This document shows, piece by piece, positions 3,754 through 20,387 of a DNA stretch of 20,421 nucleotides. The notes under the pieces are model-generated. The model worked only from the letters and a program-made list of their open reading frames with translations. It did no database searches and was not told the origin of the DNA. A program made the position numbers and the translations under genes. Source of the DNA: a virus. Lineage: Duplodnaviria > Heunggongvirae > Uroviricota > Caudoviricetes. The stretch lies in IMG/VR virus record IMGVR_UViG_2654587509_000002; one strand, 5' to 3'. Within the stretch, counting starts at the first letter, position 1. Every line of letters starts with the position of its first letter.

Positions 3754-4044
3754 TCATCTTTTAACTCCATATACCGCCAATACCCGTTTCATCGCGGCAC
3801 TCTGGCGACACTCCTTAAAAATCAGGTTCGTGCTCATCTTTCCTTCCCGTTCTTCCCTGGTAGCAAACCGGTAATACACCGTTCGCCAGACCTTACCTTC
3901 GATAACCAGAAGACCTGCCCGTGCCATTTTAGCCGCGGCCTGATTTATGCTGGTTACTGTTGCGCCTGTTAGCGCGGCAACGTCCGGCGCACAGAAGCTA
4001 TTATGCGTCCCCAGGTAATGAATAATTGCCTCTTTGCCCGTCAT
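3754..4044 (-). CDS. ren: Ren
   Basis: 96 aa MTGKEAIIHYLGTHNSFCAPDVAALTG...; length and sequence as recalled for lambda Ren; directly downstream of P. Confidence 0.85.
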   Translation of the reverse strand: MTGKEAIIHYLGTHNSFCAPDVAALTGATVTSINQAAAKMARAGLLVIEGKVWRTVYYRFATREEREGKMSTNLIFKECRQSAAMKRVLAVYGVKR

Positions 4045-4742
4045 ACACTTGCTCCTTTCAGTCCGAACTTAGCTTTAATTTCTGCGATCTTCGCCAGAGC
4101 CTGTGCACGATTTAGAGGTCTACCGCCCATAACAGGAAGTTGTTTTACTGGTTCAGGTATCGTCTCACCACGGTTAATTCGCGCTGTCATACAGGTCAGT
4201 TCATCGGCAGCCTTGCGCCGTAATTCCGCATCAGTAAGCGCATTGGCCCGCATGTTCTGATACAGGTTGGTAACCAGCCAGTAGTGCGCGTTTGATTTCC
4301 ACGGATAAGACTCCGCATCCGGATACAGGCCTCGCTTCCGGCAATACTCGTAAACCATATCAACCAGCTCGCTGACGTTTGGCAGTCCGGCGATAACGGA
4401 TGCTTCTTCCCGGCACCATGCAACAAACTGCCCGGGTGATGGCAGAAATGGTCGATTCTGCCGACGGGCTACGCGCATTCCTGCGTTAACCTGTTCCATC
4501 GTGGTGATCCCGTTTTCCCGAAAAGCCAGAACCCACTGGCGACGGATTTCGTTCACTTCGTTCTGGTCACGGTTAGCCAGGCTCGCCGGGAAAGTTGCCA
4601 GTAACTGGCTGAACACACCGTTGATGATCTGCGCTACCTGCTGTACCTGCGGCTTTTCGTCGTACTGTTCCGGCATGTTGTTGGCGATCCGACGCATCTG
4701 CTCACGGTCAAAGTTAACCATCTGTGCGGCGATGTTTTTCAT
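4041..4742 (-). CDS. P: Replication protein P (DnaB helicase loader)
   Basis: 233 aa MKNIAAQMVNFDREQMRRIANNMPEQYDEKPQ...; lambda P length; ATGA overlap with O. Confidence 0.95.
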   Translation of the reverse strand: MKNIAAQMVNFDREQMRRIANNMPEQYDEKPQVQQVAQIINGVFSQLLATFPASLANRDQNEVNEIRRQWVLAFRENGITTMEQVNAGMRVARRQNRPFLPSPGQFVAWCREEASVIAGLPNVSELVDMVYEYCRKRGLYPDAESYPWKSNAHYWLVTNLYQNMRANALTDAELRRKAADELTCMTARINRGETIPEPVKQLPVMGGRPLNRAQALAKIAEIKAKFGLKGASV

Positions 4743-6083: not shown

Positions 6084-7439
<1,356 letters not shown>

Positions 7440-8116: not shown

Positions 8117-8671
8117 TTACTTAGATATTGGCCTTGGCTTTATCTCAATATTATATGGATCATAGCTGGCAACTAATTCAGTCCAGTAAATATCCTCAAT
8201 AGGGAATAATATATGCTTCCCGTTCCATCGGGAAAAAGTTTTGTTCAACACACCAAGCTCAATCAACTCACTAATGTATGGGAATTGTTTTGATGTAACC
8301 ACATACTTCCTGCCTTCATTAAGGGCTGCGCACAAAACCATAGATTGCTCTTCTGTAAGGTTTTGAATTACCGATCGCACTTTATCGTTTTGCATCTTAA
8401 TGCGTTTTCTTAGCTTAAATCGCTTATATTTGGCGCTGGCAATAGCTGATAATCGATGCACATTAATTGCTAGCGAAAATGCAAGAGCAAAGACGAAAAC
8501 ATGCCACACATGAGGAATACCGATTCTCTCATTAACATATTCAGGCCAGTTATCTGGGCTTAAAAGCAGAAGTCCAACCCAGATAACGATCATATACATG
8601 GTTCTCTCCAGAGGTTCATTACTGAACACTCGTCCGAGAATAACGAGTGGATCCATTTCTATACTCATCAA
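8117..8671 (-). CDS. sieB: Superinfection exclusion protein B (SieB)
   Basis: 184 aa MMSIEMDPLVILGRVFSNEPLERTMYMIVIWVGLLLL... with hydrophobic segments; transcribed opposite to N, as in lambda. Confidence 0.8.
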   Translation of the reverse strand: MMSIEMDPLVILGRVFSNEPLERTMYMIVIWVGLLLLSPDNWPEYVNERIGIPHVWHVFVFALAFSLAINVHRLSAIASAKYKRFKLRKRIKMQNDKVRSVIQNLTEEQSMVLCAALNEGRKYVVTSKQFPYISELIELGVLNKTFSRWNGKHILFPIEDIYWTELVASYDPYNIEIKPRPISK

Positions 8672-9045: not shown

Positions 9046-9165
9046 CAGAACAACAAAGCTGCCTGATAGTGGCCTTTATTTTTGGCATAAATAACAGAAT
9101 AAACACTGCACTGAACCGCCCCGGGAATCCTGGAGACTAAACTCCCTGAGAAAGAGGTAAACAGG

Positions 9166-9492
9166 ATGACTAAAAATACTCGTTTTTCCCCTGAAGTCCG
9201 TCAACGGGCAGCCCGTATGGTTCTGGAAAGTCAGGGCGAATATGACTCACAATGGGCGACAATTTGTTCCATTGCTCCAAAGATTGGCTGTACGCCGGAG
9301 ACTCTGCGTGTCTGGGTTCGCCAGCATGAGCGGGATACCGGGGGCGGTGATGGAGGGCTCACCACCGCTGAACGTCAGCGTCTGAAAGAGCTGGAGCGTG
9401 AAAATCGTGAACTGCGCCGCAGTAACGATATCCTTCGCCAGGCTTCCGCTTATTTTGCGAAGGCGGAGTTCGACCGCCTCTGGAAAAAATAA
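9166..9492 (+). CDS. IS629 transposase OrfA (HTH and leucine-zipper subunit)
   Basis: 108 aa [55 protein letters not shown]...; ends in an A6 run just before orfB. Confidence 0.9.
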
Positions 9493-10379
9493 TGCCGCTG
9501 CTGGATAAGCTGCGTGAGCAGTACGGGGTCGGACCGCTATGCAGCGAACTGCATATTGCCCCGTCAACGTATTACCACTGTCAGCAACAGCGACATCATC
9601 CGGATAAACGCAGTGCCCGTGCGCAGCGCGATGACTGGCTGAAGAAAGAGATACAGCGCGTATACGATGAAAATCACAAGGTATACGGTGTGCGTAAAGT
9701 CTGGCGTCAGTTGTTACGGGAAGGAATCAGAGTGGCCAGATGCACTGTGGCACGTCTCATGGCGGTTATGGGACTTGCCGGTGTTCTCCGGGGTAAAAAG
9801 GTCCGCACTACCGTCAGCCGGAAAGCCGTTGCCGCATGCGACCGCGTAAACCGTCAGTTCGTGGCAGAACGTCCAGACCAGTTGTGGGTGGCTGATTTTA
9901 CCTGGGTAAGCACATGGCAGGGCTTCGTTTATGTGGCGTTCATCATTGATGTGTTCGCCGGATACATCGTGGGATGGCAGGTCTCATCATCCATGGAAAC
10001 AACATTCGTGCTGGATGCACTGGAGCAGGCGTTGTGGGCCCGTCGGCCGTCCGGCACAATCCATCACAGTGATAAAGGTTCTCAGTATGTATCGCTGGCC
10101 TACACGCAGCGGCTTAAGGAAGCCGGATTACTGGCATCAACAGGGAGTACTGGCGACTCGTATGACAACGCGATGGCGGAGAGCATCAATGGTCTTTACA
10201 AAGCGGAGGTAATACACCGTAAGAGCTGGAAAAACCGTGCAGAAGTGGAACTGGCCACACTCACGTGGGTGGACTGGTATAACAATCGACGATTGCTGGA
10301 AAGGCTGGGCCATACTCCCCCGGCAGAAGCAGAAAAAGCTTATTATGCTTCCATCGGAAACGATGATCTGGCAGCCTGA
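9492..10379 (+). CDS. IS629 transposase OrfB (DDE catalytic domain), normally expressed as an OrfAB fusion by -1 frameshift
   Basis: 295 aa, in the -1 frame relative to orfA and overlapping its stop; IS3-family integrase-core motifs (HSDKGSQY..., ...ESINGLYKAE). Confidence 0.9.
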   Translation: MPLLDKLREQYGVGPLCSELHIAPSTYYHCQQQRHHPDKRSARAQRDDWLKKEIQRVYDENHKVYGVRKVWRQLLREGIRVARCTVARLMAVMGLAGVLRGKKVRTTVSRKAVAACDRVNRQFVAERPDQLWVADFTWVSTWQGFVYVAFIIDVFAGYIVGWQVSSSMETTFVLDALEQALWARRPSGTIHHSDKGSQYVSLAYTQRLKEAGLLASTGSTGDSYDNAMAESINGLYKAEVIHRKSWKNRAEVELATLTWVDWYNNRRLLERLGHTPPAEAEKAYYASIGNDDLAA

Positions 10380-10421
10380 GTTCACAGATAAAACACTCTC
10401 CAGGAAACCCGGGGCGGTTCA

Positions 10422-10610
10422 CTGCGTGTGTGGGTTCGTCAGCATGAGCGGGATACCGGGAGTGGTGATGGTGGACTCACCACCGCTGAACGTCAGCGTC
10501 TGAAAGAGCTGGAACGTGAAAATCGTGAACTGCGCCGCAGTAACGATATCCTTCGCCAGGCTTCCGCTTATTTTGCGAAGGCGGAGTTCGACCGCCTCTG
10601 GAAAAAATAA
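10422..10610 (+). pseudogene. IS629 orfA remnant (C-terminal 62 codons, no native start)
   Basis: In-frame continuation of orfA codons from the truncation point; the ORF track shows it only via a GTG start at 10428. Confidence 0.8.
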
Positions 10611-11497
10611 TGCCGCTGCTGGATAAGCTGCGTGAGCAGTACGGGGTCGGACCGGTATGCAGTGAACTGCATATTGCCCCGTCAACGTATTACCACTGTC
10701 AGCAACAGCGACATCATCCTGATAAACGCAGTGCCCGTGCTCAGCGCGATGACTGGCTGAAGAGAGAGATACAGCGCGTATACGATGAAAATCATCAGGT
10801 GTACGGTGTGCGTAAAGTCTGGCGCCAGTTGTTACGCGAAGGTATCAGGGTGGCCAGATGTACAGTGGCGCGCCTCATGGCGGTTATGGGACTTGCCGGT
10901 GTTCTCCGGGGTAAAAAGGTCCGTACTACCGTCAGCCGGAAAGCCGTTTCCGCAGGCGACCGCGTAAACCGTCAGTTCGTGGCAGAACGTCCTGACCAGC
11001 TGTGGGTGGCTGATTTTACTTACGTCAGCACATGGCAGGGCTTCGTCTATGTGGCGTTCATCATTGATGTGTTTGCCGGATGTATCGTGGGGTGGCGAGT
11101 CTCATCGTCTATGGAAACGACATTCGTGCTGGATGCACTGGAGCAGGCGTTGTGGGCCCGTCGGCCGTCCGGCACAGTCCATCACAGTGATAAAGGTTCT
11201 CAGTATGTATCACTGGCCTATACGGAGCGACTAAAAGAAGCAAAACTGCTGGCATCAACAGGGAGTACAGGTGACTCGTATGACAACGCGATGGCGGAGA
11301 GCATCAATGGTCTTTACAAAGCGGAGGTAATACACCGTAAGAGCTGGAAAAACCGTGCAGAAGTGGAACTGGCCACACTCACGTGGGTGGACTGGTATAA
11401 CAATCGACGATTGCTGGGAAGGCTGGGTCATATCCCTCCGGCAGAAGCAGAAAAAGCTTATTATGCTTCCATCAGAAACGATGATCTGGCAGCCTGA
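10610..11497 (+). CDS. IS629 OrfB, second copy (intact frame; expression doubtful because orfA is truncated)
   Basis: 295 aa, about 95% identical to the first OrfB with scattered substitutions (for example K52R, W138Y, Y158C). Confidence 0.8.
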   Translation: MPLLDKLREQYGVGPVCSELHIAPSTYYHCQQQRHHPDKRSARAQRDDWLKREIQRVYDENHQVYGVRKVWRQLLREGIRVARCTVARLMAVMGLAGVLRGKKVRTTVSRKAVSAGDRVNRQFVAERPDQLWVADFTYVSTWQGFVYVAFIIDVFAGCIVGWRVSSSMETTFVLDALEQALWARRPSGTVHHSDKGSQYVSLAYTERLKEAKLLASTGSTGDSYDNAMAESINGLYKAEVIHRKSWKNRAEVELATLTWVDWYNNRRLLGRLGHIPPAEAEKAYYASIRNDDLAA

Positions 11498-11539
11498 GTT
11501 CACAGATAAAACACTCTCCAGGAAAACCGGGGCGGTTCA

Positions 11540-11953
11540 GGGCTGTATTCCAATGCCACGTTGACAGATGCTGACCCTCAGGCAATTGAAGATGCCATTA
11601 ATGACCTCGAAGACATGATGGCAGCATGGCAGGCTAAAGGTATCGAGCTTGGATATCAGTTTGCTGATACAGAAAACGGCATCATGCCGTTACCTGACGA
11701 TGATTCAGGTATCCCTGCGTGGGCAAATGATGGCGTCGCTTTGAAGCTCGCTGTGCAAGTGTGCATGGATAACGTCATTCAGCCGTCAGATGCTCTCCTT
11801 ACCGCTGCTGACAGCGCATATCAGACAATCTGCATCGCTTTAACCAAAATACCACCACTTGAGCGGCGAAATGACATGCCTCGCGGTAGTGGTAACAAAA
11901 GCGCGTTTACGTGGAATCGGTTTTACATCGAGAAAGATGATCCAAGTACGTGA
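11540..11953 (+). pseudogene. gp4: P22-like gene 4 (head completion / tail accessory protein), 5'-truncated by IS629
   Basis: Frame is open from the IS boundary (GLYSNATLTDADPQAIEDAINDLEDMMAAW...), 137 codons remaining; no start codon with a ribosome-binding site; followed by gene 10 as in P22. Confidence 0.7.
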
Positions 11954-12103: not shown

Positions 12104-12688
12104 ATGCTTTCTGAGAATGCTAAAGATATACCTGGATTTGAAGGTGTTTATGCCGTAACAGAAGATGGCAGGGTATATTCTCACTCACGTGTTGTTAAGG
12201 CTGCGCATGGCAGCACGCAACTCAGAAAGGGGCGCTGGTTAAAGCCTAAAATCAATCAGGGAAGGGTGCTTTATAATATCGGAGCAAAATGGACTTTTGC
12301 CCATCGAATCGTTGCAATGACATTCCTGCCAAATCCTGAAAACAAGCCTCAGGTAAATCATATTGATGGCAATCCACTCAATAATAACGTCAATAATCTT
12401 GAGTGGTGCACTCAAAGCGAAAACATCAAACATGCATACGCCACCGGATTAAAGAAACCAATCAAGTTTTTCGGAACCAAGCACCCAAAACACAAGTTGA
12501 GTGATGACGATGTTCTTGCAATCAAGTCATCAAAAGAAAGCTTGTCAGTAATTGCGGCTAAGTACGGGATATCTAAGACCTGGGCAAGTAGGCTAAAGCG
12601 TGATGCTAACTGGGTTCATATAAAGGTTGATTCCAATGGCAATACAACAACTACCACTAATGAAGGGATTGGGGAAAAGTGCGGTTAA
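12104..12688 (+). CDS. HNH homing-endonuclease-like protein (NUMOD4-like N-terminus plus HNH motif)
   Basis: 194 aa; AAGGAG ribosome-binding site; GFEGVYAVTEDGRVYS (NUMOD4-like), HRIVAMTF...VNHIDGNPLNNNVNNLEWCTQSENIKHA (HNH); AT-rich; 3' end overlaps the gene 10 start. Confidence 0.8.
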   Translation: MLSENAKDIPGFEGVYAVTEDGRVYSHSRVVKAAHGSTQLRKGRWLKPKINQGRVLYNIGAKWTFAHRIVAMTFLPNPENKPQVNHIDGNPLNNNVNNLEWCTQSENIKHAYATGLKKPIKFFGTKHPKHKLSDDDVLAIKSSKESLSVIAAKYGISKTWASRLKRDANWVHIKVDSNGNTTTTTNEGIGEKCG

Positions 12689-15914: not shown

Positions 15915-17330
15915 ATGGCTACGTGGCAACATGGTATTAATTCTGGTGGTTTTCTGGCTGGCATCGGTACGCAAAATGAGAATGCGCCAAAGGCAAGCGA
16001 CATTAACGCAACGCTTGGTCTGATCCGCGAAAACAATGAGTTGGCTCGCTCAGGTGCAAATAACGTTGGTCTGACCGCGTTACGTGGTCTGGCTGGAGTT
16101 GCTGATATTTACAATCAGGAACAGCAACAGAAAGCGATTAGTGCGTTCAATAAGGTTCACGCTGATGCATGGGCTTCTGGTGATCCATCGGGACTATTTA
16201 AGTTTGCCCAGGAAAATCCAGCGTTTGTTGCACAGGCACAACAGGCGTTTTCTGGTCTTAATGATCAGCAACGCAACGATATGGGCGATTTAGCCATGAG
16301 GGCTAACGTCGCTCTTTCTCAGGGACCGGAAGCCTACAGTAAATTCATTACTGACAACAAGGACAGGTTAAATCGCGTTGGTGCTAATGCTGACTGGATG
16401 ATTCAGACAGGTATCCAGAATCCAGAGCAGCTATCACACATGCTGACTACTATGTCTCTCGGTGCGCTTGGACCAGAAAAGGCGTTTGCTGTTCAGGATA
16501 AGATGGCTGGTCGTGAAATTGACCGAGGCAGGCTGGCAGAGACAATCCGCAGCAATCAGGCTGGTGAAGCACTTCAGGCGAGAGGGCAAAACCTTTCCTA
16601 TCAGTCAGCAATGACTGGGCACAATATCGCAGCACAACGCTTGGCTCTGGATCAGCAAGAGTTCGGGTTTAAGATGCAGCAAGCGCAGGAAAAGGCTCAG
16701 CAGTTGATTAGTGAAGCACCTAAGCTGTCAGTAAACATGGAAAAAGGCATCGAGACGGCTGTAAACAATGCCACAGCATCATCAAACTCAGCCAATTCTA
16801 TGAGTGCGCTTGCTCAACAGTTCAGAGCAGAAAAACCAACGACAGGTTTGTTCGGTAACGCACAGAACATGTTCGCAAAACTTACCGGAAGCGATACGAC
16901 ATTGCGTGATTTGCGCATCCGCCAAAATGCCCTTGTTAACAGTCAGGTTCTTAAATTCCTACCTCCCGGCCCAGCAACGGATAAAGACGTTGAGATCGTT
17001 CGGCAGGGTGCGCCAACTGACATGGATAACCCTGAGACGGTCGCAAGATGGCTTGATGCAATGGCAAACCTTGAGCGACGAAACGCGCAGTTTAATGAGT
17101 TTAAAGCTGAGTGGATGAGCGCGAATGGCAATCCTGGACAATCGCGTAATGGCGGTCAGATATTGGGGTTGGATGTTAAAAAAGGTGAATCATTGGGGAG
17201 TGCCGTTAAGCGGTATATGTCATTGAATACTGACGCAGCGCCAGCACAAGATTCGACACCTTCAGGAGAACCACGGAATCAGGTTGGATCATATACCTCA
17301 AAATCAGTCATTCAATTTACGGTGGAATGA
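15915..17330 (+). CDS. gp20: P22-like gene 20 ejection protein
   Basis: 471 aa, identical in length to P22 gp20; synteny. Confidence 0.8.
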
Positions 17331-19168
17331 TGAAAGTAACTGCAAACGGTAAGACATTTACCTTCCCTGATGGTACGAGCACGGAAGATATTGGAGCCGC
17401 CATTGATGATTATTTTGCTGGTCAGGTTGTTCAGCAACAAACAGTTAATCAGGCCAATAATGCACCAGTACGTGAAGAACCATCATTGATGCAACAAGCT
17501 GGCGATTGGCTCACTGGTGGTCAAAGTGCAGGGCAAATTGCAGAACAGGCTGGTCGTGGTCTGGTAAACATACCATTTGACGTATTGCAGGGTGGCGCAA
17601 GTCTGATTAATGCAATCAGTCAGGGGCTTGGTGGGCCAAAAGTTTTGGATGATGTTTATCGTCCAGTAGACAAACCGACAGACCCATACGCACAAGCCGG
17701 TGAAACAATTGGTGGGTATTTAGTTCCAGGAGTTGGAACGGCAGGAAGCATGGCTATTGGATCGCTGGCAGAGGCCGCAAATCAGAAAGGCGATTTCGCA
17801 CAAAATGCAGCTAAAAATGCCGGAGTTAACCTTGCCGCTCAGGGTGTTCTTTCCGCAGCAGCAAAGGGAATAGGGCGTGGAATAACGGCTATAAAAGGTG
17901 ATATTGCGCCAGAAGTGGCGAAGAAAATTGCCACATCAGAATCGATGGGCGTGACACCAATGACATCTGATGTTATCCCGCCGAAAAATGCTTTCACTCG
18001 CGGCCTTACTCAGGATGCCGAGGGGGCTTTGCTCGGGACGGGCTCAAAGCGAGCAGAGCAATATGCAACGCGGAGTAAGCTGGTAAGCAATTATTTTGAC
18101 CGTTTTGGTGAGTACAACCCTGATGATGTGGTGAAATCTCTGACCACCACGTTAAGGGGGCGGAAGGATGCCGCTGGCGCTGTTATCAATGACGTCACCA
18201 ATAAAATGGGTAATGCCGCAGTTGATACCACAAATACCATGAATGCTCTGAATACAGCGATCGCAAGACAGGAACGGCTTGGGACGTCTGCCAATCAAAG
18301 CCTGCTTACATCCTTGCGTAACCTACGTGAAGAATTAGCAAACCCTGCAACTGATTTGGATGTTACGTTTGATCTCTTGCGTCAGCACAGAACAGCATTT
18401 AGATCTAATGTTCAGGGAGATGCTATGGTCTTCCCCAACCAGGCAAAAGCAGCTACCAATATGGTAGAGAATGCAATGTCAAAAGACCTTCGTAACGCAG
18501 TTGCTAAAAACCTCGGTGCATCAGACGCAGCAAAATACCTTAAAGCAAATTCCGATTATGCAAACGTTTATAATAAGGTGCTTAATAAAAACATTGCCAA
18601 CAAGCTCAACAAGGCAAGCAGTGAAGCCAGTCCTGAACTTATAAATACCGTTGTATTAAGCAGAAAACCATCTGACGTGAAACGAATCTGGAGCGCACTG
18701 GATGATAAGGGGAAAGATGCTATGCGTGCAGCTTACGTCAGCAAAATAGCGGAAAAGGCCGGGGACTCTCCAGCCAAGTTCATCACTGAAGTTAATAAGC
18801 TGAAATCTCAGTCAGGCGGTGAAATTTACAACACTATTTTTTCTGGAAAGCACATGAAAGAGCTTGATGCTCTTCATGAAGTTCTACAGCAAACAGCAAG
18901 GTCAGACACCGCAAATGTAGTAACTCAGACGGGGCAATCGCAAGCCAACAGGATAAGGACGATTGGCGCAACTGCGACCCTTGGCGTATCAATGGGGCTT
19001 GAGGCTGGTTTTGGTGCAATGATGCGCTTGTATGAGTCCAAAGCAGCAAGGAATATGCTTCTTCGTTTGGCAAACACCAAAGCAGGAACACCAGCCTATG
19101 AAAGAGCGATAAATAACGCTGCGAATGCCATCAGACCGCTGTTTGCTACTGAGGCAACACAGCAGTAA
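17327..19168 (+). CDS. gp16: P22-like gene 16 ejection protein
   Basis: 613 aa (P22 gp16 is about 609 aa); ATGA overlap with gene 20; last gene of the ejection operon. Confidence 0.8.
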
Positions 19169-19192: not shown

Positions 19193-19582
19193 CTAACATT
19201 TTCTTTTTACTTTTCCAACAAAAGCTTTGGTTGAATCCATATTTCCATAACCGGAAATGGTTTTTGACATTAAAACTGTTCCAGTAGGATGTATTACCCA
19301 TGAGTCGATAACGCGTTGAGTTTCGCCATTCGCGCCGATTCCTATGATGGAGTTTTTAGACAATGCTTTGTAAGCCATGCCGCCCGCATCTGTCCCAGAA
19401 TATGTGATGCTGGCATCTTCACCGTTTGTCTTAATGATGAATGTTCCACTAAAACCATCTTCTTCCGGATGGAAATTATTTCGTTCTGAATAGCTTATTC
19501 CGCGCATATCTCCAACGACCCAGCACTCTGCTGTAGCCCCAAAAGATATGAATAAGAACATAGCAGTAAGAAATTGCTTCAC
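19193..19582 (-). CDS. Secreted (periplasmic) protein of unknown function, 129 aa, paralog of the cI-linked gene at 7035
   Basis: GTG start preceded by a strong ribosome-binding site (TAAGGAGGttggcGTG); signal peptide MKQFLTAMFLFISFGATA then ECW; shared motifs with 7035-7439 (ECW[IV]V, TNGED/INGD, Y.ALS, [ST]W.I, STK[AS]FVG.V, C-terminal Cys). Confidence 0.7.
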   Translation of the reverse strand: MKQFLTAMFLFISFGATAECWVVGDMRGISYSERNNFHPEEDGFSGTFIIKTNGEDASITYSGTDAGGMAYKALSKNSIIGIGANGETQRVIDSWVIHPTGTVLMSKTISGYGNMDSTKAFVGKVKRKC

Positions 19583-19699
19583 GCCAACCTCCTTAGTTTT
19601 GAGCAGGATACCATGAAAAAAGTAAACATCTTTTGCCTACTTCACATTTGAATGGTTTGTCATTAGGATGTTTCCGGTTTTTTAAATATGGAAATTGAT

Positions 19700-20119
19700 A
19701 TGAAGAGGATTATTGGCGTCGTTGCTGGCGCTATATTGTTATCTGGGTGCGCAACTATTGTTGGTGACGAAACGCAGCTTGTGCAAGTGAACAGCAATCC
19801 TTCCGGTGCGAGCTTTAAGGTAAAAGACGAATCAGGCGTGATTGTTGCGCAAGGTAAGACCCCGCAAGGAGTAACTCTTGCCAAGTCAGATGGTAGTTAT
19901 TTTGGCAAAAAGAGCTACCAGATCACTATGGAGAAGGATGGGTACGAACCAGTTACCCTACCAATCAAAGCCAATGCTAATGGTTGGTATATTGGTGGAA
20001 ATCTTGTGTTTGGTGGGTTAATTGGTTGGCTTGCTGTAGATCCATTTAATGGTGGGATGTATACCTTGAAGCCTAAAGAGGCAAATGCATCCCTTATACC
20101 GTCAACAAAGCAAGACTAA
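19700..20119 (+). CDS. Predicted lipoprotein with a PEGA-like beta domain and a C-terminal glycine-zipper hydrophobic segment
   Basis: MKRIIGVVAGAILLSGC lipobox (Cys +1, Ala +2); NPSGASFKV...GKTPQGVTL...GYEPVTL resembles a PEGA domain; WYIGGNLVFGGLIGWLAV glycine zipper; the ORF-track start at 19688 is also possible. Confidence 0.7.
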   Translation: MKRIIGVVAGAILLSGCATIVGDETQLVQVNSNPSGASFKVKDESGVIVAQGKTPQGVTLAKSDGSYFGKKSYQITMEKDGYEPVTLPIKANANGWYIGGNLVFGGLIGWLAVDPFNGGMYTLKPKEANASLIPSTKQD

Positions 20120-20126
20120 TAAATGG

Positions 20127-20150
20127 AACCCACCATCAGGTGGGTTTTTT
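20127..20150. terminator. Rho-independent terminator between the convergent lipoprotein gene and mnt
   Basis: ACCCACC-atca-GGTGGGT hairpin followed by TTTTTT (20144-20150); the mnt stop codon lies in the loop. Confidence 0.7.
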
Positions 20151-20387
20151 GTACAAATCCTTCAGCGTATCAAACACCATCTTCTTAACAAGTTCGGACT
20201 GCTCATCAGCGATGCGTTCCGCATCGTCTCGATAGCCTGAAATTTTGGATTGCCTTGATACAGCATCAGTCACTATCTGAACTAATTCTGAATTAATAGA
20301 GCGGCCATTGGATTTGGCTCGCTGTTTTAGTTTTTCCTTTAATTTGTAAGGTAGCCGCAGATTAAATTGCGGGTCATCTCTTCCCAT
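20136..20387 (-). CDS. mnt: Mnt repressor (ribbon-helix-helix, Arc/MetJ fold) of a P22-type immI region
   Basis: 83 aa MGRDDPQFNLRLPYKLKEKLKQRAKSNGRSINSELVQIV...DAERIADEQSELVKKMVFDTLKDLYKK, close to P22 Mnt as recalled; transcribed opposite to gene 16, as in P22. Confidence 0.85.
   Translation of the reverse strand: MGRDDPQFNLRLPYKLKEKLKQRAKSNGRSINSELVQIVTDAVSRQSKISGYRDDAERIADEQSELVKKMVFDTLKDLYKKPT

Follow-up and report, generated by a model that had tools for sequence, protein, structure and literature searches.

An open reading frame of 129 codons (ORF129), located between gene 16 and mnt of a P22-like prophage, is an uncharacterized paralog within the already known Hex family, placed in the slot that is occupied by sieA in P22. 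It was analyzed in a stretch of 20,421 nucleotides from a Caudoviricetes virus record (IMGVR_UViG_2654587509_000002), referred to below as the window, in which a second member of the family, a homolog of phage 434 Hex, follows the repressor gene cI. ORF129 is a selectively maintained accessory gene ("moron") of P22-like prophages. With regard to its function, we tentatively propose that it is a periplasmic superinfection-exclusion factor acting at the DNA delivery of P22-like phages, which we regard as a serious possibility somewhat short of probable.

Two diverged members of the Hex family

A preliminary description of the window had claimed two homologous secreted proteins, one encoded between cI and N, where lambda has rexAB, and the other between gene 16 and mnt. 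Both positions were as claimed, and the ORF in the second position is real, with 129 intact codons on the minus strand from GTG to TAG. The features concerned are the following.

6406 to 7038, plus strand: 434-type cI repressor gene (HTH and S24 peptidase), translationally coupled to hex
7035 to 7439, plus strand: cI-linked paralog, a phage 434 Hex homolog of 134 aa, whose ATG overlaps the cI stop
17327 to 19168, plus strand: homolog of P22 gene 16 (ejection protein), convergent with ORF129 and 24 bp from it
19193 to 19582, minus strand: ORF129, predicted secreted Hex-family paralog of 129 aa, GTG start and TAG stop
19582 to 19580 and 19195 to 19193, minus strand: start codon GTG and stop codon TAG of ORF129
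19529 to 19582, minus strand: signal-peptide codons of ORF129, MKQFLTAMFLFISFGATA, with predicted cleavage before E19
ORF129 product: residues 1-18, predicted signal peptide; residues 19-129, predicted mature beta-barrel with Cys20 and Cys129

As had been stated, the two proteins are homologous yet highly diverged. They are 27% identical from end to end (BLASTP, E=2e-12), and both match PHROG 2651 over its length, ORF129 with 2.9e-61 (116 of the 117 profile positions) and the cI-linked protein with 7e-59. In pairwise alignment of the mature parts against shuffled controls, the Smith-Waterman score of 112 was far above the shuffled mean of 30.1 +/- 5.5 (z=14.9), and none of the 2000 shuffles reached it. 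A chance ORF or a chance similarity was ruled out by this control, by the common PHROG and by the purifying selection described below. Most of the shared motifs that had been listed were recovered, namely ECW[IV]V, Y[KT]ALS, [ST]W[SV]I, STK[AS]FVG[DK]V and the C-terminal Cys, but the block given as [IT]NG[ED]D was not, the sequences there being TNGED and INGDK.

The cI-linked protein does not found a new family, as it is the Hex protein of phage 434, which has been named and studied. It is 99% identical to the protein encoded after cI in phage 434, annotated as "repressor protection protein" in the phage 434 genome record, and its gene corresponds to Sf6 gene 38 (gp38) and also occurs in HK446, HK633, Sf101 and other phages. 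The longest form of the ORF begins at 6963. The likeliest true start is the ATG at 7035, which forms an ATGA overlap with the cI stop, because the homologs in Citrobacter, Enterobacter and Yersinia all begin at an ATG that overlaps the repressor stop.

ORF129 shows full-length similarity to phage 434 Hex and Sf6 gp38 and carries the hallmarks of the family, i.e., a signal peptide, a mature start of the x-C-W type, the STK[AS]FVG motif (STKxFVG in the family) and a C-terminal Cys; the two proteins also share their PHROG, their length and a predicted barrel. Both are encoded by prophage accessory genes in slots classically used for exclusion. However, whereas hex forms part of the PRM operon, where it is joined to a 434-type cI by ATGA coupling, ORF129 neither follows nor overlaps such a gene; it lies 12-25 kb away and is preceded by start signals of its own. 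In 71 of 78 IMG/VR loci, gene 16 and ORF129 converge, with the 3' end of gene 16 within 60 bp, and ORF129 is therefore a paralog at another locus and not a hex ortholog. The two form separate clades that are usually found in different prophages.

ATGA coupling to a 434-type cI is found for the Hex clade in four genera (Escherichia, Citrobacter, Enterobacter and Yersinia), and only two family loci, both of the Hex clade and cI-linked, were found in species-representative genomes. A member in Aeromonas (L093-L095, approximately 4001-4426) is located at the edge of variable mobile DNA, with conserved right-hand neighbors and with left-hand neighbors that vary between genomes (resolvase, integrase, transposase or KilA-N genes). 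Its site is thus an integration hotspot or else the end point of several distinct islands. Another distant relative adjoins a resolvase gene. The anticipated enrichment of the family at prophage immunity regions was accordingly seen for the cI-coupled Hex clade and for ORF129 beside gene 16 (the 71 of 78 loci above), but not for a few distant relatives that lie elsewhere. The Hex family is best described as mobile-element cargo, mostly but not solely found in phage immunity regions. Since some distant relatives adjoin resolvase, integrase or transposase genes, its ancestral function may be other than phage-specific.

The suggestion that the two genes form a fixed two-locus system was not supported, as the clades mostly occur apart. 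Among 5426 complete E. coli genomes, the ORF129 clade was present in 147, the Hex clade in 207 and both in 21, the last number being derived from a concatenated query that matched 333 genomes as compared with 147 and 207 for the separate queries. Approximately 5.6 genomes with both would be expected under independence (clonality uncorrected). None of the sequenced phage records held both clades. In each of the two co-carrying genomes that were inspected, both genes were found in a single P22-like prophage. The CUPS04 prophage is intact and located at argW, with hex and ORF129 25 kb apart on the same strand, and the CEA601S prophage, at thrW, is internally deleted and carries both genes. The immunity module and the gene 16-ORF129 module of CUPS04 are 98-99.6% identical to those of the window, and the two are mosaic elsewhere. 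The pair of hex and ORF129 is best explained as a real minority combination that arose by modular assortment. Duplication in place was judged unlikely, because the clades are only 27% identical, each is widespread alone and co-occurrence is the minority state.

The prophage in the window is rearranged and probably defective, as indicated by one further feature.

9108 to 11549, plus strand: full IS3-family element and a 5'-truncated tandem copy, joining the inverted early region to a truncated gene 4

The full element has inverted repeats at 9108-9136 and 10397-10425. The second copy is arranged head to tail, is without the first ~200 bp and ends at 11515-11549, and gene 4 beyond it is 5'-truncated (11561-11953). 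As hex and ORF129 are joined here via a tandem IS and an inversion, the window alone cannot show one working prophage. A SieB homolog is encoded just past N (8117-8671; Pfam SieB, 1e-29); therefore, the stretch carries up to four candidate layers of superinfection protection, namely cI immunity, sieB, hex and ORF129. We also observed an HNH endonuclease ORF (12104-12688; PHROG 59, 4e-53) between gene 4 and gene 10, overlapping the gene 10 start; it resembles the insertion of a homing endonuclease into the late operon. In CUPS04, the HNH gene is a different one and lies between the scaffold and coat genes.

The gene 16 site and expression of ORF129

Previous studies described the gene 16/ant region as a hypervariable "ant moron" that carries diverse cargo (Villafane et al. 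2008, PMC2629481). On the far side of ORF129, the window has the following genes.

19688 to 20119, plus strand: lipoprotein gene (lipobox LLSGC, PHROG 6823, weak PEGA match), divergent from ORF129
20136 to 20387, minus strand: mnt repressor gene (immI), with a hairpin terminator at 20127-20146

The lipoprotein is 98% identical to epsilon34 gp15 and has a glycine-rich, hydrophobic C-terminal part. Its gene accompanies ORF129 in roughly a third of the loci, as a variable neighbor within the ant moron.

ORF129 was detected in at least 78 IMG/VR viral contigs (88-99% identity), in 147 of the 5426 complete E. coli genomes, where it is always chromosomal, and in Salmonella phages Emek and ST-35 (96-97% identity). 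Among the matching phage records it was present in just three, and most P22-like phages are without it. Elsewhere it is annotated as "hypothetical protein", although the Emek GenBank record notes a similarity to Sf6 gene 38. A metagenome ortholog, 62% identical to ORF129, is located 17 bp from the end of gene 16 and has a tailspike gene on its other side. The gp16 alleles that neighbor ORF129 are 55-100% identical to gp16 of the window. One of them, in E. coli CEA601S (L092 24484-26829), is 781 aa long, has an N-terminal SLT lytic transglycosylase domain (E=1e-25) and resembles T7 gp16; gp16 of the window (613 aa) is without SLT.

In P22, sieA is found 22 bp past gene 16, in the same orientation as ORF129, and has a private promoter. 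ORF129 thus shares with SieA (types A, B and C) the slot between genes 16 and 9 and the orientation antisense to the late operon, and its expression would likewise be independent, from a private promoter. The proteins themselves are different. No similarity was detected between the SieA and ORF129 sequences (BLASTP, E=0.99), and sieA, searched for as type A by tblastn or by the conserved SieA motif, was absent from every ORF129 locus and from the window. The two therefore look like alternative occupants of one slot. Homology of ORF129 to SieA was rejected on the basis of the same E value and of the FxRYPxEAxxFNK motif, which occurred in no locus examined except P22's own. SieA is a multi-pass inner-membrane protein in which this motif is cytoplasmic, is carried by 22 of 66 P22-like phages and blocks DNA delivery through gp16/gp20 (PMC10883804). 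Such a multi-pass topology was also rejected for ORF129, which has a single N-terminal hydrophobic segment and an all-beta barrel model; it is predicted to be a soluble exported barrel with a signal peptide alone. The likeness to SieA might extend to the block of DNA delivery on P22-like phages, which for ORF129 is proposed here.

The signals ahead of the gene are as follows.

19587 to 19595, minus strand: Shine-Dalgarno sequence of ORF129, TAAGGAGGT, 4 nt 5' of the GTG
19605 to 19613, minus strand: candidate extended -10 element, TGgTATCCT, at the upstream edge of the conserved gene module

The preliminary description had given ORF129 its own ribosome-binding site and GTG start, opposite to the late operon, in agreement with these positions and with the antisense orientation. 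The Shine-Dalgarno sequence TAAGGAGGT is kept in at least 90% of the 42 different upstream sequences. Upstream of the GTG-start copies, at least 18 unrelated contexts converge at -31 on TGGTATCCTGCNCAAAACTAAGGAGGTTGGYGTG, and the conserved block opens at this point with TGGTATCCT (18 unrelated upstream contexts). A two-hexamer promoter scan found no site on the ORF129 coding strand, and we therefore relied on comparative conservation of the candidate extended -10 element, which was seen in 56 of the 65 GTG-start loci, spread over 18 different upstream contexts. TGnTATCCT is predicted to be an extended -10 element that needs no -35, with a module boundary just upstream.

A different arrangement was found in the 14 loci of an allele class designated MKLII. 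Here, ORF129 has an ATG start and is the third gene after mnt and a second secreted-protein gene (orf111), with a promoter-like site ahead and no predicted terminator between mnt, orf111 and ORF129. The orf111 product (L070 3650-3985; 14 loci) is 111 aa long and has a signal peptide and two Cys. It is known that mnt is expressed in P22 lysogens, and expression of ORF129 from the prophage is supported by its place in the operon of this gene in the MKLII class. Most likely, ORF129 would be transcribed in the lysogen, either from its own extended -10 promoter or, in the MKLII class, within the mnt operon, and its antisense orientation to the late operon fits a lysogen-expressed moron.

It could be argued that ORF129 instead serves the lytic cycle of the phage (assembly, injection or timing of lysis), given that its neighbors are the ejection-protein genes and that it is closely tied to gene 16. 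We consider this highly improbable, because ORF129 runs antisense to the late operon, most P22-like phages do not have it and only the three phage records mentioned do, sieA, hkcB and other cargo can stand in its place at this site, and it is part of the mnt operon in one allele class.

The 82 copies collected (the window and copies from other loci) represent 39 nucleotide alleles and 23 protein variants, and ORF129 is intact in all of them, with 129 codons in each. For the mature part, the mean dN/dS of all pairs was 0.17, and comparison of the main allele classes with one another gave 0.08-0.10; this part of the protein is under purifying selection. The MKLII class has an unrelated signal-peptide segment, in which pS is 0.88 as compared with 0.11 in the mature part, and we therefore place a recombination breakpoint at the junction of signal peptide and mature chain.

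Export signals and the published role of Hex

The hydropathy of ORF129 peaks at 2.6 at residues 4-12 and later never exceeds 1.1. As it does not rise again, there is no further hydrophobic segment and no membrane anchor beyond the signal. The cleavage context, A-T-A|E-C-W, is of the AXA type. A Cor/Llp-type outer-membrane lipoprotein was excluded, because this context puts the Cys at +2 and a lipobox is absent. An N-terminal signal peptide was found in every family member collected, i.e., in 30 aligned sequences and in ~187 clusters at 50% identity, which were obtained by an exhaustive profile search of 1.84 billion representatives. The family pattern consists of Cys-Trp (or Cys-aromatic) one residue past the site of predicted cleavage, together with a Cys at the C-terminus or close to it. 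Residues C20, W21, G28, D42, W95, K107 and V122-G123 are invariant in the family alignments, and the C-terminal Cys is shared by at least 90% of 30 diverse homologs and is invariant in a second alignment.

The start codons supported by comparative data give 134 aa for Hex and 129 aa for ORF129. RefSeq start calls give a Hex of 103 aa, from which the signal peptide is wholly removed, and an ORF129 of 122 aa with a clipped start (L086 11095-11406 and 36325-36693). Such choices, which cut the signal peptide of both proteins, help explain why the export signal was overlooked.

AlphaFold models of ORF129 and Hex (pLDDT 88.7 and 85.5, respectively) begin alike with an N-terminal helix, after which come 8-9 antiparallel strands; the first and the last of these bear the two cysteines. 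In ORF129, the helix (residues 3-11) is of low confidence and precedes a closed barrel. ORF129 is predicted to be a Sec-exported closed all-beta barrel of ~111 residues, probably with a Cys20-Cys129 disulfide, a pattern that would be expected of a periplasmic protein oxidized by DsbA. A calycin/lipocalin-like closed up-and-down barrel is a candidate fold, and the structural similarities of the model are generic. Searches of Pfam, NCBIfam, PADLOC and PDB sequences with ORF129 gave no matches. An MliC/PliC-type periplasmic lysozyme inhibitor was among the candidates rejected, as neither these nor any other Pfam family was matched.

Judging by these sequence features, we think that the physiological site of action of the Hex family is the periplasm. 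Such signals sit badly with the cytoplasmic, RecA-related role that has been published for Hex. In that study, PRM was reported to drive transcription of hex together with cI (Shkilnyj et al. 2013, PMC3564112), deletion of hex led to a ~30-fold higher recA-dependent spontaneous induction, and a 61-residue fragment, sHex, inhibited RecA-stimulated cleavage of the 434 and P22 repressors in vitro (PMC3564112). Full-length Hex showed unexplained lethality or toxicity, and MBP-Hex unexplained processing (PMC3564112). The paper also relates that lambda-imm434 hex mutants no longer exclude P22 in Salmonella (PMC3564112, citing Susskind & Botstein 1980). The exclusion role that the preliminary description had envisaged for the cI-linked copy thus agrees with a reported need for phage 434 Hex in P22 exclusion (PMC3564112). 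In the same account, both phenotypes, P22 exclusion and lower recA-dependent induction, are reported for 434 Hex alone (PMC3564112). The equation of the genetic hex locus with the cI-linked ORF rests on this single paper (PMC3564112).

In the Hex paper, the ORF is given as 158 aa, with a 76-nt overlap with cI (window 6963-7439) (PMC3564112), and neither "signal" nor "periplasm" occurs as a word in the text (PMC3564112). The N-terminus of sHex is Glu43 of this ORF, which coincides with the predicted signal-peptidase site ANS|E (window 7089). With residues 19-79 of Hex, as compared with strands at 19-131, sHex comprises roughly the first half of the barrel predicted. Its start at the cleavage site could explain both the processing of MBP-Hex and the toxicity of full-length Hex.

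By extension of the published role, ORF129 might be a cytoplasmic protein that stabilizes lysogeny by shielding the repressor from RecA-stimulated self-cleavage. The increased induction in the hex deletion and the inhibition of repressor cleavage by sHex in vitro (PMC3564112) are in line with this explanation, as is the name "repressor protection protein" in the phage 434 record. Nevertheless, it appears very improbable to us. The whole family has a signal peptide and conserved terminal cysteines; sHex starts exactly at the predicted cleavage site and covers only about half of the predicted barrel; and export was never considered in the Hex paper (PMC3564112). In addition, ORF129 has no linkage to a repressor gene and is found in prophages with many types of immunity, and the phenotype of the hex deletion could be a cis effect on the cI transcript. 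Cytoplasmic protection of the repressor seems to be the explanation least compatible with the sequence features.

Possible function in superinfection exclusion

If ORF129 is a periplasmic exclusion factor, it would be expressed from the prophage in the lysogen, exported by Sec and folded as a periplasmic barrel. It would then bind a component that incoming P22-like virions release into the periplasm or assemble across it. Candidate targets are the gp7/gp20/gp16 conduit, the needle or a virion-borne cell-wall hydrolase. With this component bound, the incoming DNA would not reach the cytoplasm. We suggest this function because Hex has a P22-exclusion phenotype, export is predicted, the gene occupies the sieA slot, SieA acts on gp16/gp20 and there is precedent for such action from the periplasm.

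P1 Sim and T4 Sp are exported proteins that stop phage DNA entry after adsorption, and T4 Sp targets the gp5 lysozyme. A more recent precedent for a periplasmic effector that blocks phage DNA entry is HXS, a radical-SAM-matured repeat peptide system with a periplasmic effector (PMC13128918). Sim, Sp and HXS are unrelated to ORF129 in sequence and fold as far as tested, and the resemblance would be one of mechanism only. Against an exclusion function stands the published biochemistry of Hex, i.e., cytoplasmic inhibition of RecA-stimulated repressor cleavage (PMC3564112).

The main alternative is that ORF129 acts in lysogenic conversion, to the advantage of the host, and does not exclude phages. 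For example, it could be a periplasmic inhibitor or binder directed against lysozyme-type muramidases, colicin/pesticin-type toxins or type VI effectors, or a calycin-like barrel for a small ligand. Distant family members in non-phage mobile contexts (in Aeromonas and beside a resolvase gene) and the diverse cargo of the ant moron (PMC2629481) are consistent with such a function. However, ORF129 matches neither MliC/PliC nor any other Pfam family, and its structural similarities are generic. The sole phenotype tied to the family, Hex-dependent exclusion of P22, is a phage phenotype. Furthermore, close linkage to cI and to gene 16 characterizes the two main clades, and ORF129 was never found together with sieA. 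On balance, we regard a benefit to the host as unlikely, although it deserves consideration.

Exclusion might also be achieved in another way, with ORF129 inhibiting a virion-borne cell-wall hydrolase in the periplasm rather than jamming the ejection-protein conduit. An N-terminal SLT domain is present in some gp16 alleles beside ORF129 (for CEA601S, E=1e-25), and gp16 of Sf101 carries the annotation of a transglycosylase. This version is quite improbable, given that gp16 of the window, CUPS04 and Emek is without the SLT domain, that ORF129 associates with many gp16 alleles and that it has no sequence relation to known inhibitor families.

Taken further, the proposal of periplasmic exclusion leads to a bolder hypothesis, which we consider somewhat unlikely as a whole. 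The Hex family would be an unrecognized class of soluble periplasmic exclusion proteins that jam DNA delivery by P22-like podoviruses, and ORF129 would replace SieA where sieA is absent. The two paralogs, 27% identical, would widen the range of ejection proteins that are excluded, and the cytoplasmic RecA-related activity of Hex would be secondary or an artifact of a signal-less half-barrel.

The position of the cI-linked paralog, after the repressor gene, is also that of lambda RexAB and 933W Stk, which are lysogen-expressed defense genes. BTP1 BstA is likewise encoded by a lysogen-expressed defense gene placed after the repressor gene. RexAB, Stk and BstA are cytoplasmic or membrane abortive-infection systems and have no sequence relation to the Hex family.

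About two thirds of the sequenced P22-like phages are without sieA (PMC10883804), and ORF129 is one common occupant of the slot. It is related to the only other protein that is reported to exclude P22 outside the P22 sie genes. If the site of action is indeed periplasmic, ORF129 would offer a soluble tool for probing the gp7/gp20/gp16 conduit, which is poorly understood. In that case Hex, which is treated as cytoplasmic in the literature, would also need to be re-read, as all family members bear an export signal and terminal cysteines.
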